The position numbers and the translations under genes are program-made. DNA of 8,089 bases, from the IMG/VR virus record IMGVR_UViG_2558860290_000019. One strand, written 5' to 3'. This DNA comes from a virus (taxonomy: Duplodnaviria; Heunggongvirae; Uroviricota; Caudoviricetes). Of this stretch, positions 2,687 through 8,089 are shown one piece after another (the first letter of the stretch is position 1; each line of letters begins with the position of its first letter). The notes beneath the pieces were generated by a model. That model worked only from the letters and a program-made list of their open reading frames with translations, searched no databases and had not been told where the DNA came from.

Positions 2687-3205
2687 ATGGCAATGCCGCG
2701 CAAACTCAAGTTAATGAACGTCTTTCTGAACGGCTACAGCTATCAGGGCGTTGCAAAGTCCGTCACGCTGCCAAAACTGACCCGTAAGCTCGAAAACTAT
2801 CGCGGTGCGGGGATGAACGGCAGCGCACCGGTGGACCTCGGCCTTGATGACGATGCGCTGTCAATGGAGTGGTCGCTCGGGGGCTTCCCGGATTCGGTTA
2901 TCTGGGAGCTTTACGCCGCAACCGGTGTGGATGCTGTGCCGATTCGTTTTGCAGGCTCTTACCAGCGTGACGATACCGGCGAAACGGTGGCCGTCGAGGT
3001 GGTCATGCGTGGACGTCAGAAAGAAATCGACACCGGCGAGGGTAAACAGGGAGAAGACACCGAGTCGAAAATCTCCGTGGTCTGCACCTATTTCCGGCTG
3101 ACGATGGACGGTAAGGAGCTGGTCGAAATCGACACCATCAACATGATTGAGAAGGTGAACGGCGTCGACCGGCTGGAGCAACACCGCCGCAATATCGGCC
3201 TGTGA
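2687..3205 (+). CDS. FII: Tail tube protein (P2 gpFII family)
   Basis: 172-codon ORF with GGAG (2675..2678) 8 nt upstream of the ATG. Size and position match P2 gpFII (172 aa as I recall). Confidence 0.93.
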   Translation: MAMPRKLKLMNVFLNGYSYQGVAKSVTLPKLTRKLENYRGAGMNGSAPVDLGLDDDALSMEWSLGGFPDSVIWELYAATGVDAVPIRFAGSYQRDDTGETVAVEVVMRGRQKEIDTGEGKQGEDTESKISVVCTYFRLTMDGKELVEIDTINMIEKVNGVDRLEQHRRNIGL

Positions 3206-3261: not shown

Positions 3262-3537
3262 ATGAACAAAGAAAATGTGATTACCCTGGACAATCCGGTC
3301 AAACGTGGTGAGCAGGTTATCGAACAGGTCACGCTGATGAAACCCAATGCGGGGACGCTGCGCGGTGTCAGTCTGGCTGCGGTCGCAAACTCCGAAGTCG
3401 ATGCACTGATTAAAGTGCTGCCGCGCATGACGGCACCGATGCTGACCGAGCAGGAAGTCGCCGCGCTGGAACTGCCTGACCTTGTGGCGCTGGCCGGTAA
3501 GGTGGTCGGTTTTTTGTCGCCGAACTCGGTGCAGTGA
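3262..3537 (+). CDS. E: Tail assembly chaperone (P2 gpE family)
   Basis: 91-codon ORF (MNKENVITLDNPVKRGEQVIEQV ... GFLSPNSVQ). Size and position match P2 gpE. A TTTTTTG run lies near its 3' end. Confidence 0.9.
   Translation: MNKENVITLDNPVKRGEQVIEQVTLMKPNAGTLRGVSLAAVANSEVDALIKVLPRMTAPMLTEQEVAALELPDLVALAGKVVGFLSPNSVQ
3510..3516 (+). promoter_or_regulatory. Slippery heptamer T_TTT_TTG in the E frame; candidate programmed frameshift site for E+E'
   Basis: In the E frame the codons are GGT TTT TTG, giving the X_XXY_YYZ pattern. Programmed -1 frameshifting at TTTTTTG to make gpE+E' is the established P2 mechanism. See the findings for the frame anomaly in this sequence. Confidence 0.55.
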
Positions 3538-3691
3538 CGTTTCCAAAAAAATACTCTCGGTCGATGACCTGATGGCGGATGTGGCAGTGGTATTTCACTG
3601 GCCGCCATCAGAACTGTATCCCATGAGCCTGACCGAACTCATCACATGGCGCGAAAAGGCGCTCCGGCGAAGTGGAAACACGAATGAGTAA
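3515..3691 (+). CDS. E': E' reading frame (C-terminal extension of gpE, expressed only as an E+E' frameshift fusion); in this sequence it lies in the +1 phase relative to E
   Basis: Open frame with no convincing own start, overlapping the 3' end of E and ending at TAA 3689..3691, which overlaps the T start. C-terminal part reads LSVDDLMADVAVVFHWPPSELYPMSLTELITWREKALRRSGNTNE. The 5' boundary is nominal, because the true fusion point depends on the shift site. Confidence 0.6.
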   Translation, partial: CRRTRCSDVSKKILSVDDLMADVAVVFHWPPSELYPMSLTELITWREKALRRSGNTNE

Positions 3692-6132
3692 CAATGTAAA
3701 ATTACAGGTATTGCTCAGGGCTGTTGACCAGGCATCCCGCCCGTTTAAATCCATCCGCACAGCGAGTAAGTCGCTGTCGGGGGATATCCGGGAAACACAA
3801 AAATCACTGCGCGAGCTGAACGGTCAGGCATCCCGTATTGAGGGATTTCGCAAGACCAGTGCACAGCTCGCCGTGACTGGTCATGCACTTGAAAAGGCAC
3901 GGCAGGAGGCCGAAGCCCTTGCCACACAGTTTAAAAACACCGAACGTCCGACACGTGCTCAGGCGAAAGTGCTGGAATCCGCAAAGCGTGCGGCGGAGGA
4001 CTTACAGGCGAAATATAACCGCCTGACGGATTCCGTTAAACGCCAGCAGCGGGAACTGGCCGTTGTGGGAATTAATACCCGCAATCTTGCACATGATGAG
4101 CAGGGACTGAAAAACCGTATCAGTGAAACCACCGCACAGCTTAACCGTCAGCGTGACGCGCTGGCGCGTGTCAGTGCGCAACAGGCAAAACTTAACGCAG
4201 TAAAACAGCGTTATCAGGCAGGCAAGGAACTGGCCGGAAATATGGCCTCAGTGGGCGCTGCCGGTGTGGGGATTGCGGCGGCGGGAGCGATGGCCGGAGT
4301 TAAGTTGCTGATGCCCGGTTATGAGTTTGCGCAGAAAAACTCAGAATTGCAGGCCGTGCTCGGAGTGGCAAAAGACTCCGCCGAAATGACCGCACTACGC
4401 AAACAGGCGCGCCAGCTCGGCGACAATACCGCCGCTTCGGCGGATGATGCGGCCGGTGCACAGATAATCATCGCGAAAGCGGGTGGGGATGTTGATGCCA
4501 TTCAGGCGGCAACGCCGGTCACGCTGAATATGGCGCTGGCGAACCGCCGCACGATGGAAGAAAACGCCGCCCTGCTGATGGGGATGAAATCCGCCTTTCA
4601 GCTTTCAAACGATAAGGTCGCTCATATCGGGGATGTTCTCTCCATGACGATGAACAAAACCGCCGCCGATTTTGACGGCATGAGCGATGCGCTGACCTAT
4701 GCCGCACCTGTAGACAAAAAATGCCGGTGTCAGCATTGAAGAAACCGCCGCAATGGTCGGGGCGCTGCATGATGCAAAAATCACAGGCTCAATGGCGGGG
4801 ACGGGAAGCCGTGCCGTGTTAAGCCGCCTGCAGGCACCGACGGGAAAAGCATGGGATGCACTCAAAGAGCTTGGTGTGAAAACCTCAGACAGCAAGGGAA
4901 ACACCCGGCCAATATTTACCATTCTGAAAGAAATGCAGGCCAGTTTTGAGAAAAACCGGCTCGGTACTGCCCAGCAGGCTGAATACATGAAAACTATTTT
5001 CGGGGAGGAGGCCAGCTCAGCCGCCGCCGTGCTGATGACTGCCGCCTCAACCGGAAAGCTGGACAAACTGACCGCTGCGTTTAAAGCCTCAGACGGGAAG
5101 ACTGCCGAGCTGGTAAATATCATGCAGGACAACCTCGGCGGTGACTTTAAGGAGTTTCAGTCCGCTTATGAGGCGGTGGGGACTGACCTGTTTGACCAGC
5201 AGGAAGGCGCACTGCGTAAGCTCACACAGACGGCCACAAAGTATGTGTTAAAACTCGACGGCTGGATACAGAAAAACAAATCACTGGCGTCAACCATTGG
5301 CATCATTGCCGGTGGCGCGCTGGCGCTTATTGGCATCATCGGTGCCATTGGTCTTGTAGCCTGGCCGGTTATCACCGGCATCAATGCCATTATCGCGGCA
5401 GCAGGCGCAATGGGGGCAATCTTCACGACGGTTGGCAGTGCTGTTATGACGGCCATCGGGGCGATTAGCTGGCCGGTTGTGGCTGTGGTGGCCGCCATTG
5501 TCGCCGGGGCGTTGCTTATCCGTAAATACTGGGAGCCTGTCAGCGCATTCTTCGGCGGTGTGGTTGAAGGGCTGAAAGCAGCATTTGCGCCGGTGGGGGA
5601 ACTGTTCACGCCACTTAAGCCGGTGTTTGACTGGCTGGGTGAAAAGTTACAGGCCGCGTGGCAGTGGTTTAAAAACCTGATTGCCCCGGTCAAAGCCACC
5701 CAGGACACCCTGAACCGTTGCCGTGATACTGGCGTCATGTTCGGGCAGGCACTGGCTGACGCGCTGATGCTGCCGCTTAATGCGTTCAACAAACTGCGCA
5801 GCGGAATTGACTGGGTACTGGAAAAACTCGGTGTTATCAACAAAGAGTCAGACACACTTGACCAGACCGCCGCCAGAACTCAAGCCGCCACGAATGGCAG
5901 CGGTGGTTATATTCCGGCGACCAGCTCTTATGCAGGCTATCAGGCTTATCAGCCGGTCACGGCACCGGCTGGCCGCTCTTATGTGGACCAGAGTAAAAAC
6001 GAATATCACATCAGCCTGACCGGTGGTACTGCGCCGGGGACACAGCTTGACCGCCAGTTACAGGATGCGCTCGAAAAATACGAGCGGGATAAACGTGCGC
6101 GCGCCCGTGCCAGCATGATGCATGACGGTTAA
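3684..6132 (+). pseudogene. T: Tail tape measure protein (P2 gpT family), interrupted by a frameshift in an A6 run (4716..4721); possibly a homopolymer sequencing error
   Basis: N-terminal ORF from ATG 3684 (MSNNVKLQVLLRAV; the track's GTG at 3672 is less likely) ends DKKCRCQH with TGA at 4737..4739. The +1 frame is open from 4714 and reads TKNAGVSIEETAAMVGALHDAKITGSMAG through to TAA 6130..6132. Removing one A gives a continuous AAPVDKNAGVSIEE junction and an 815-codon ORF, which matches my recollection of P2 gpT length. The N-terminus is coiled-coil-like (Q/R/A-rich) and the centre has glycine-rich hydrophobic segments (GIIAGGALALIGIIGAIG), both typical of tape measure proteins. Confidence 0.8.
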
Positions 6133-6146
6133 GGAGGTGACGAAAA

Positions 6147-6626
6147 ATGATGCTCGCGTTAGGTATGTTTGTTTTTATGCGCCAGACGCTGCCACACCAG
6201 ACCATGCAGCGTGAATCAGATTATCGCTGGCCGTCAAATTCCCGTATCGGTAAACGGGATGCCTTTCAGTTTCTCGGTGTGGGTGAGGAAAACATCACGC
6301 TTGCCGGTGTGCTTTATCCAGAACTGACCGGCGGCAAGCTGACGATGACCACGCTCAGGCTGATGGCAGAGGAAGGCCGGGCGTGGCCGTTGCTGGATGG
6401 CACCGGCATGATTTACGGCATGTATGTCATCAGCAGGGTGAGTGAAACAGGGAGTATTTTCTTTGCAGACGGCACACCCCGGAAAATTGATTTTACGCTG
6501 TCGCTCACCCGCGTTGATGAATCACTGGCCGCGCTTTATGGCGATATCGGTAAACAGGCGGAATCGCTCATCGGTAAGGCTGGCAGTATGGCGACCAGAT
6601 TCACGGGTATGACGGGGGCGGGATAA
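6147..6626 (+). CDS. U: Tail protein gpU (P2 gpU family)
   Basis: 159-codon ORF with AGGAGG (6132..6137) 9 nt upstream of the ATG. Size and position match P2 gpU. Confidence 0.88.
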   Translation: MMLALGMFVFMRQTLPHQTMQRESDYRWPSNSRIGKRDAFQFLGVGEENITLAGVLYPELTGGKLTMTTLRLMAEEGRAWPLLDGTGMIYGMYVISRVSETGSIFFADGTPRKIDFTLSLTRVDESLAALYGDIGKQAESLIGKAGSMATRFTGMTGAG

Positions 6627-7789
6627 TGCTGGATGCGCTGACATTTGATGCAGGCAGTACACTGACGCCGGATTATATGCTGATGCTCGACAGCAGGGAT
6701 ATTACCGGCAATATCAGCGACCGTCTGATGAGCATGACCCTGACGGATAACCGGGGCTTTGAGGCTGACCAGCTTGATATTGAACTGAATGATGCCGACG
6801 GGCAGGTCGGGCTGCCGGTTCGTGGCGCTGTCCTGACGGTGTATATCGGCTGGAAAGGTTTTGCCCTGGTATGCAAAGGGAAATTTACCGTTGATGAGGT
6901 CGAACACCGGGGCGCGCCGGATGTGGTCACCATCCGCGCCCGGAGTGCAGATTTTCGCGGGACGCTCAATTCCCGCCGTGAAGGCTCCTGGCATGACACC
7001 ACGCTCGGTGCGATTGTTGAGGCGATAGCCTCCCGTAACAGGCTGGAAGCCAGTGTCGCGCCGTCACTGGCAGGAATTAAAATCCCGCACATCGACCAGT
7101 CGCAGGAGTCCGACGCGAAATTCCTGACCCGTCTTGCAGAACGCAACGGCGGTGAGGTGTCGGTAAAAATGGGAAAACTGTTGTTTCTCAAAGCGGGGCA
7201 GGGGGTGACGGCCAGTGGTAAAAAAATCCCGCAGGTCACCATAACCCGCAGCGACGGCGACCGCCATCATTTTGCGATTGCTGACCGTGGAGCCTATACC
7301 GGCGTAACGGCAAAGTGGTTACACACCAAAGACCCGAAGCCGCAAAAGCAGAAGGTAAAACTGAAACGCAAAAAGAAAGAGAAACACCTGCGCGCACTGG
7401 AGCACCCGAAAGCGAAACCGGTCAGGCAGAAGAAAGCGCCTAAAGTACCGGAAGCGCGCGAAGGTGAATACATGGCCGGTGAGGCTGACAACGTTTTTGC
7501 CCTGACCACGGTATATGCCACAAAAGCGCAGGCCATGCGCGCCGCTCAGGCGAAGTGGGATAAACTGCAACGGGGCGTTGCGGAGTTCTCCATCAGCCTG
7601 GCTACCGGTCGGGCAGATATTTACACGGAAACACCGGTCAAAGTGTCTGGCTTTAAGCGCGTCATAGACGAGCAGGACTGGACAATCACTAAGGTGACAC
7701 ACTTTCTGAATAATTCCGGCTTCACGACGTCCTTAGAGCTTGAGGTCAGGCTTTCTGATGTGGAGTACGAAACAGAAGATGATGAGTGA
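6626..7789 (+). CDS. D: Tail protein gpD (P2 late control gene D family, baseplate hub-like)
   Basis: 387-codon ORF whose ATG overlaps the U stop (TAATG, 6624..6628), suggesting translational coupling. Size and position match P2 gpD. Contains a lysine-rich low-complexity segment (7325..7468). Confidence 0.88.
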   Translation: MLDALTFDAGSTLTPDYMLMLDSRDITGNISDRLMSMTLTDNRGFEADQLDIELNDADGQVGLPVRGAVLTVYIGWKGFALVCKGKFTVDEVEHRGAPDVVTIRARSADFRGTLNSRREGSWHDTTLGAIVEAIASRNRLEASVAPSLAGIKIPHIDQSQESDAKFLTRLAERNGGEVSVKMGKLLFLKAGQGVTASGKKIPQVTITRSDGDRHHFAIADRGAYTGVTAKWLHTKDPKPQKQKVKLKRKKKEKHLRALEHPKAKPVRQKKAPKVPEAREGEYMAGEADNVFALTTVYATKAQAMRAAQAKWDKLQRGVAEFSISLATGRADIYTETPVKVSGFKRVIDEQDWTITKVTHFLNNSGFTTSLELEVRLSDVEYETEDDE

Positions 7790-7870: not shown

Positions 7871-8089
7871 ATGTTTCATTGTCCTTTATGCCAGCATGCC
7901 GCACATGCGCGTACAAGTCGCTATATCACTGACACGACAAAAGAGCGTTATCACCAGTGCCAGAACGTGAATTGCAGCGCCACGTTCATCACTTATGAGT
8001 CGGTACAGCGATACATCGTGAAGCCGGGAGAAGTCCACGCCGTAAGACCGCACCCGTTGCCGTCAGGGCAGCAAATTATGTGGATGTAA
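7871..8089 (+). CDS. ogr: Ogr, zinc-finger transcriptional activator of late genes (Ogr/Delta family)
   Basis: 72-codon ORF MFHCPLCQHAAHARTSRYITDTTKERYHQCQNVNCSATF..., with the Cys-x2-Cys ... Cys-x4-Cys zinc-binding pattern. AAGAGG lies 8 nt upstream of ATG 7871. The track's longer ORF from TTG 7808 is rejected because it lacks an RBS and would run through the promoter-like region. The stop TAA is at 8087..8089, the window edge. Confidence 0.9.
   Translation: MFHCPLCQHAAHARTSRYITDTTKERYHQCQNVNCSATFITYESVQRYIVKPGEVHAVRPHPLPSGQQIMWM

Follow-up and report, generated by a model that had tools for sequence, protein, structure and literature searches.

Gene content of the locus

The window, by which we mean the whole 8,089-nt stretch of DNA analyzed here, contains the end of the tail-gene region of a P2-type prophage. 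From position 1408 to position 8089 it is colinear with the genome of phage P2, at 96.7% identity, and the following genes could be identified:

1484-2674, sheath gene FI, from the list of open reading frames (ORFs)
2687-3205, tube gene FII, from the ORF list
3262-3537, gene E, from the ORF list
3672-6132, tape measure gene T, broken, from the ORF list
6147-6626, gene U, from the ORF list and a match to the Pfam family GpU
6626..7789, plus strand, gene D, coding for the baseplate hub protein gpD (387 aa), from the ORF, Pfam, identity to P2 and fold
up to 8089, ogr, from the ORF list and a match to the Pfam family Ogr_Delta

Gene D is found where the order of a P2-type tail operon places it (FI-FII-E/E'-T-U-D, then ogr). 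It shares 97.5% nucleotide identity with P2 gene D, and the encoded protein differs from P2 gpD at two positions, K132E and T136S, both outside the lysine-rich segment that is the subject of this study. Residues 51-364 match Pfam family PF05954 (Phage_GPD, 'Phage tail baseplate hub (GPD)') with 95.2 bits against a cut-off of 30.1. An AlphaFold2 model built from a 103-sequence alignment (mean pLDDT 86.9, pTM 0.84) displays a fold of the gp27/VgrG/gp44 type, and its Foldseek matches are the hubs of eCIS, R2 pyocin, P1, Mu and T4, and T6SS VgrG, with E-values against solved hubs of 5e-24 to 1e-13. The gp27, Mu gp44 and VgrG hubs (PDB 1k28, 1wru, 9ki1, 4mtk, 3cdd and others) have the same fold as gpD (Foldseek probability 1.00, query-normalised TM-score 0.5-0.73), but their sequence identity is of 10-16% only, and they are undetectable by sequence search. 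The gpD of the window is a baseplate hub protein, by both Pfam and fold. In P2, cryo-EM has placed a gpD trimer between the tube initiator and the spike (Klein-Sousa et al., bioRxiv, dated 2026-09-15, 10.64898/2026.09.14.750843).

A cluster of lysines in gpD

The feature under study is the following:

7322..7471, plus strand, lysine-rich segment, gpD residues 233-282, net charge +13, from translation and composition; identical to P2, and located in a gap of the alignment with the pyocin R2 hub (PDB 6u5h)

Positions 7325-7468 of the plus strand translate to TKDPKPQKQKVKLKRKKKEKHLRALEHPKAKPVRQKKAPKVPEAREGE, corresponding to gpD T234-E281; the peptide quoted in a preliminary description of this DNA is one residue longer, and ends with Y282 at position 7471. 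Residues 233-282 include 15 lysines, four arginines, one aspartate and five glutamates, for a net charge of +13, while the other 337 residues of the protein sum to -9. The densest 48-residue window of gpD holds 16 lysines; shuffling the protein 20,000 times gave maxima of 8.0 on average and of 14 at most. The clustering of lysines in gpD is real and goes far beyond chance. At the DNA level, 69% of positions 7325-7468 are purines, versus 56% in the whole of gene D, and only eight T are present in 144 nt. The portrayal of the segment as a highly basic and purine-rich insert in gpD is therefore borne out by net charge, purine content and shuffling alike.

Concerning a foreign origin of the insert, we could not find any compositional sign of it, the GC content being 0.53 against 0.55 for the gene. 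Searching the literature for previous accounts of lysine richness in gpD yielded unrelated papers only.

Antisense reading frames opposite the segment

Two ORFs are present on the opposite strand:

7294..7536, minus strand, antisense ORF of 80 aa, spurious; no Pfam match, and long antisense stretches are typical of gpD genes
7319..7702, minus strand, antisense ORF of 127 aa, spurious; no Pfam match, and 150 of its 384 nt overlap the segment

The preliminary description had reported long antisense ORFs at 7294..7702 and stated that the segment generates them. The ORFs do exist, but as two (7294-7536 and 7319-7702) that had been merged into one range, and the causal part of the statement does not hold, since they reach up to 230 nt beyond the segment and gpD genes devoid of it have equally long ones. 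Antisense stop triplets are somewhat depleted within the segment (1.4 versus 2.3 per 100 nt). The longest stop-free antisense stretch of gene D spans 197 aa, against a median near 210 aa in gpD genes that lack the lysine-rich loop, and probably corresponds to a 189-aa minus-strand ORF at 6673-7242, which lies outside the loop.

The crossing of the segment by antisense ORFs of 80 and 127 aa might point to a signal acting at the level of DNA or RNA, or to a gene on the opposite strand, rather than to a property of gpD. We regard such a reading as scarcely conceivable, because stop-free antisense stretches of about 200 aa are general in gpD genes, and because conservation follows the gpD reading frame in the form of peptide motifs (see below).

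Three specific candidates of this kind were rejected. Antisense genes have no Pfam match and their open stretches are generic to gpD genes; an RNA element finds no Rfam match in the window; and a hidden frameshift or ribosome sliding on lysine codons would have to act on a segment whose longest A run is of 5 nt and which holds no XXXYYYZ heptamer. The shifted frames across the segment stop after 10 and 39 codons.

In the GenBank record of Erwinia phage ENT90 (HQ110084.1, 985-2367), three minus-strand 'hypothetical proteins' are annotated inside gene D, and gene D itself is represented by no more than 88 aa of C-terminal 'late control protein D'. This indicates that antisense ORFs of gene D have been mis-called in a public record.

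A lineage-specific insertion in the hub fold

The position of the segment in the fold can be delimited as follows:

7358..7471, plus strand, insertion proper, gpD residues 245-282, KLKRKKKEKHLRALEHPKAKPVRQKKAPKVPEAREGEY, not found in the majority of Phage_GPD homologues
7370..7492, plus strand, gpD residues 249-289, no predicted secondary structure and low confidence, from AlphaFold2

In the AlphaFold2 model, the mean confidence of 10-residue blocks is about 83-97 over residues 11-230, falls to 74-75 over 231-250 and to 45-60 over 251-290, and rises again to 90-97 over 291-370. The strands flanking the loop are modelled at 226-231, 242-248 and 290-297. Structure prediction is thus in line with the initial view of a segment lying between two better-ordered halves of gpD, as the flanks are confidently modelled and residues 249-289 are unstructured.

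In the 103-sequence alignment, residues 242-243 and 245-282 are the sole internal run of gpD that is gapped in at least half of 90 distant homologues. Since no other internal run lies opposite gaps in most of these homologues, the segment represents a lineage-specific addition of about 38-40 residues to a gpD beta-hairpin, placed at its tip and second strand, and is no family-wide element.

The R2 pyocin hub (6u5h) is the only solved homologue detectable by sequence (E = 1e-45). It has the same fold and aligns over gpD residues 14-231 and 295-371, but it counts 29 residues where P2 gpD has 63, and lacks the lysine-rich insertion. The pyocin differs also in that a ripcord protein replaces the tube initiator (10.64898/2026.09.14.750843).

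An exhaustive HMMER search of 1.84 billion representatives retrieved 3,679 gpD homologues. We took as the length of the hairpin site the stretch from the conserved 'YTGVxAxW' strand to the conserved 'V/Y..G...L...YA' strand. Among the 107 full-length sequences in the best 150 of the 3,679, it measures at most 13 aa in 59, 14-28 aa in 14, 29-56 aa in 25, and more than 56 aa in nine. In the wider Phage_GPD family it ranges from 10 to 170 aa, with about 10 residues in most homologues. The suggestion that the segment may simply be a normal feature of the gpD family has therefore to be abandoned, given that 59 of 107 hairpins do not exceed 13 aa and that the pyocin R2 hub is some 34 residues shorter at this site.

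Other Phage_GPD lineages carry inserts of 90-170 aa at the same hairpin site (P0138, P0139, P0155, P0161, P0164, P0186 and P0187). In these inserts the motif of the next helix, 'Y.S...A..AA...W' (cf. gpD 297-311), recurs once or twice, and from their sequence they look like local tandem duplications of a structural element.

Conservation and motifs of the loop

Three blocks of the loop are of particular relevance:

7385..7417, plus strand, conserved motif HLRALEHPKAK, gpD residues 254-264, inside block 253-264
7418..7447, plus strand, hypervariable and indel-prone PVRQKKAPKV, gpD residues 265-274, 38% conserved, with 18% gaps
7448..7471, plus strand, conserved loop exit PEAREGEY, gpD residues 275-282, 96% conserved, leading into a strand common to all homologues

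Of the 120 matches listed, 114 are near-full-length relatives (370-400 aa), and every one of these has the loop. In homologues of at least 78% identity, the region corresponding to residues 225-295 spans 65-76 aa, with indels at two spots only. The expectation that the length of the segment varies between relatives is confirmed by this modest range, as well as by the much wider one (10-170 aa) observed across the family.

In 111 relatives of 78-90% identity, the loop is 74% conserved, versus 82% for the folded parts of gpD. Block by block (111 relatives below 90% identity), conservation amounts to 83% in HTKDPKPQK, to 77% in QKVKLKRKKKE, and to 79%, without any gap, in the KHLRALEHPKAK block (253-264). 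The consensus of the loop motifs in close relatives is HLRALxHPKAK and PEAREGEY. Such values and fixed motifs do not fit the notion of a loosely constrained linker.

At the exit of the loop, the residues Y282 and G285 of gpD align with the V..G of minimal hubs. In more distant P2-like clades, loops are shorter and still rich in lysine and arginine (e.g. HTREPAKKESTTVKRKRRTKKQKKEPEAKQGDY). Other distant loops have a similar length and a net charge of 0 to +3 only, and keep an 'HP.AK' core (P0129, P0151, P0153, P0196 and P0207), which in P2 is HPKAK, residues 260-264 (7403-7417 in the window). This suggests that 'HP.AK' may be a sequence-specific contact motif independent of lysine richness. Because non-basic loops keep this core, charge alone cannot be the whole mechanism. 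Judging from these alignments, the loop is constrained and motif-bearing, with one free-running spacer, and its charge is common but not universal.

These data bear on whether the loop could be a passive spacer, that is, a low-complexity expansion tolerated at an insertion-prone hairpin and devoid of a specific partner. The range of lengths that this site accommodates across the family, the hypervariable sub-block 265-274 with its indels, and the failure of AlphaFold2 to give the loop any structure would all be consistent with such a spacer. However, once the variable block is set aside, conservation of the loop equals that of the fold, HLRALxHPKAK and PEAREGEY being fixed; the HP.AK core persists in distant loops; the loop co-occurs with a C-terminal tail of gpU (see below); and a contact of the P2 hub loop has been modelled (10.64898/2026.09.14.750843). 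We therefore consider a passive spacer unlikely, albeit the least unlikely of the alternatives discussed here.

Probable correspondence with the hub-wedge contact loop of P2

The recent cryo-EM study of P2 describes a hub made of three gpD beneath six gpU, in which a 'gpD hub-triplex contact loop' touches the gpJ/gpI triplex electrostatically, and the C-terminal helix of gpU contacts the adjacent triplex in a similar manner (10.64898/2026.09.14.750843). Of the six gpU copies, three could be traced as far as T150 and the rest only to A129. The gpD loop sterically hinders the three other gpU helices, so that the symmetry is broken from C6 to C3. The authors found the loop, named 'L23', and the helix to be enriched in P2-like phages (19/27 versus 0/18) and conserved in sequence in Peduovirus, Vimunumvirus and Duonihilunusvirus. 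They propose that pulling by the fibres breaks these contacts and leads to contraction and loss of the baseplate; they also report that after contraction the baseplate is lost and the tip of the tube crosses the outer membrane (10.64898/2026.09.14.750843). The main text of the preprint gives no residue numbers for L23 and makes no mention of lysine richness (10.64898/2026.09.14.750843), and a sequence search of the PDB with gpD retrieved no solved structure of P2.

By elimination, and from the matching taxonomic distribution, the lysine-rich segment most likely corresponds to L23. First, it is the sole Peduovirus-specific insertion in gpD, the pyocin R2 hub aligning on both sides of it and being 34 residues shorter. 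Second, the coupling with gpU recurs in the loci that we surveyed. Third, DNA homologous to the loop is present in 125 phage records, including that of a Duonihilunusvirus, phage vB_YenM_06.16-2. Finally, a loop of charge +13 suits an electrostatic contact with gpJ and gpI, whose net charges in P2 are -18 and -7, respectively. The name 'L23' would also fit a loop between strands 2 and 3 of the sheet modelled at 211-218 / 226-231 / 242-248.

The window and the L23/gpU-helix module of P2 share the protein itself (two substitutions, loop identical), the gene order T-U-D-ogr, a Peduovirus-restricted elongated hub loop and a co-occurring C-terminal extension of gpU. There is no demonstrable difference between them, their equivalence being one that we infer. 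The feature is thus most likely already known, as the P2-type wedge-contact hub loop described for P2 in 2026, and not a new element.

Association with a C-terminal tail of gpU

The proposed partner of the loop is encoded immediately upstream of gene D:

6534..6623, plus strand, gpU residues 130-159, its C-terminal tail, LYGDIGKQAESLIGKAGSMATRFTGMTGAG, candidate partner of the gpD loop on grounds of co-occurrence; beyond the Pfam core

The tail lies outside the family core, as the Pfam GpU model stops at residue 125, and the gpU of the window has 30 residues past position 129. In 160 IMG/VR loci (two alignments) and 11 named phages, we determined how long the gpD insert is and how far gpU extends past residue 129, and found that long gpD loops co-occur with a gpU tail of 24-46 aa (167 loci, 23 clusters). 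Within the IMG/VR loci, a gpD insert of 29 residues or more always comes with a tail of 24-35 residues on gpU, which in most cases begins with (M/L)(F/Y)GD(L/I)..Q, whereas minimal gpD hairpins are accompanied by tails that span 0-22 residues, save for one of 29. When the 23 clusters are classified by a loop of at least 29 aa and a tail of at least 24 aa, five have both, two have only the loop, one has only the tail, and 15 have neither of them (Fisher one-sided p = 0.003, a value that overstates independence, because the clusters, made at about 70% identity, are phylogenetically related). The co-occurrence of loop and tail should therefore be read as an association, rather than as a tally of independent events.

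Exceptions occur in both directions. RSA1 (Ralstonia, 38 aa) and PHL101 (Mannheimia, 70 aa) have long basic gpD loops together with gpU tails of 10-11 aa, and Burkholderia phage phiE202 has no gpD loop and a short basic gpU tail, TTREKNTRKDKR. At genus level, basic loops occupy this site in Eganvirus (186-like), Entnonagintavirus, Kapieceevirus, Xuanwuvirus, Novemvirus, Aresaunavirus and Baylorvirus, with no gpU tail in the last two. The existence of loop-only lineages implies that the coupling between the gpD loop and gpU is not obligatory.

In P88 (Xuanwuvirus) and phiT5282H (Novemvirus), which possess a basic gpD loop of 29-32 aa, gene U does not precede gene D. A sheath gene on the opposite strand lies upstream of gene D instead, indicating that these genera have a rearranged tail operon.

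A proposed latch between hub and wedge

Taken as a whole, the segment is a flexible polycationic loop of the hub that probably contacts the wedge and acts as a releasable latch. From each of the three gpD copies, the loop would reach out to one of the six triplexes of the wedge, made of two gpJ and one gpI, and would grip it by an electrostatic and motif-assisted contact, while the other three triplexes would be held by the C-terminal helix of gpU. By sterically excluding the neighbouring gpU helices, the loop would let the hub-initiator complex turn a sixfold baseplate into a threefold one. Binding of the fibres would then pull the triplex off, upon which the contact would be lost, the sheath would contract and the baseplate would drop. 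The outward position, the triplex contact, the breaking of symmetry and the release model are those of the P2 study (10.64898/2026.09.14.750843). Our own observations concern the composition of the loop, its insertion site, its predicted disorder, its conservation, its co-occurrence with the gpU tail and its identity to P2.

The charges of loop and wedge are opposite in P2, as seen above. Across eight phages with loops of 10-70 aa, we found no trend of co-variation between the loop and the charges of gpW, gpJ and gpI, gpJ being at -13 to -24 everywhere. The net charge of the triplex varies from -17 to -55 in the eight genomes, and phages lacking the loop have gpJ and gpI of much the same acidity as phages that carry it. 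As the wedge is about as acidic where the loop is missing, charge complementarity appears generic rather than co-evolved. Together with the loop-only phages and the non-basic loops that keep HP.AK, the acidic wedges of loop-less phages indicate that the 'electrostatic' description of the contact is incomplete.

A high positive charge could also be expected of a loop that lines the lumen of the hub and binds DNA or the tape measure protein, an interaction with either having been put forward at the outset, and it is the one property of the segment that speaks for such a role. The P2 tape measure has itself a net charge of +16, so that the charges would repel each other; gpD matches PF05954 only and no nucleic-acid-binding domain; most hubs work without the loop; and in the P2 structure the tape measure forms a C3 bundle in the lumen, whereas the Peduovirus-specific hub loop sits at the wedge interface (10.64898/2026.09.14.750843). 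We consequently found no support for this proposal, and hold it to be very improbable.

The polycationic composition, and the passage of the tube tip across the outer membrane once the baseplate has been lost after contraction (10.64898/2026.09.14.750843), would be compatible with an interaction with the host envelope, in which the exposed +13 loops attach to phosphates of LPS, to peptidoglycan or to the head groups of phospholipids, thereby aiding penetration. Such a role is doubtful, more so than a passive spacer, as homologous loops with a net charge near 0 exist and most hubs of phages infecting similar Gram-negative hosts have no loop. It could nonetheless add to that of a latch, with three loops bared at the tip of the tube once the wedge detaches. 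It is conceivable, if rather far-fetched, that the loop has a dual use, first as a wedge latch and then as a polymyxin-like patch engaging LPS and membrane phosphates that helps the hub-spike to cross the outer membrane. Were this the case, it would be the charge of the loop, and not the HP.AK motif, that is tuned to the host envelope.

Under the latch model that we favour, the segment can be labelled as a P2-type wedge-contact hub loop rather than as unexplained low complexity. To the P2 study we add a map of motifs around one hypervariable block, the status of the loop as a single insertion, a reproduction of the association between loop and gpU tail in an independent IMG/VR set, and the exceptions to it. 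Mutagenesis of P2, a classic model phage, and the engineering of tailocins could take these motifs and exceptions as targets.

Other features of the window

The tape measure gene T carries a 1-nt insertion with respect to P2 near position 4712 (within 4700-4740 of the window), where P2 reads CCTGT-GGCAAAAAATGC and the window CCTGTAGACAAAAAATGC. The resulting break of frame leads to a stop at 4737-4739 and splits T into two ORFs, 3672-4739 and 4753-6132, meaning that the prophage is defective or that the sequence is in error.

Upstream of the tail genes, positions 1-1407 have no homology with P2. They include a minus-strand ORF (1-1170) coding for a 389-aa membrane acyltransferase of the Acyl_transf_3 family (PF01757), which occupies the site of the P2 moron fun(Z), upstream of FI, and is probably a cargo gene for lysogenic conversion.

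Finally, the slippery heptamer T TTT TTG of the known E/E' -1 frameshift is present at positions 3510-3516, and the E' extension corresponds to the ORF at 3482-3691.
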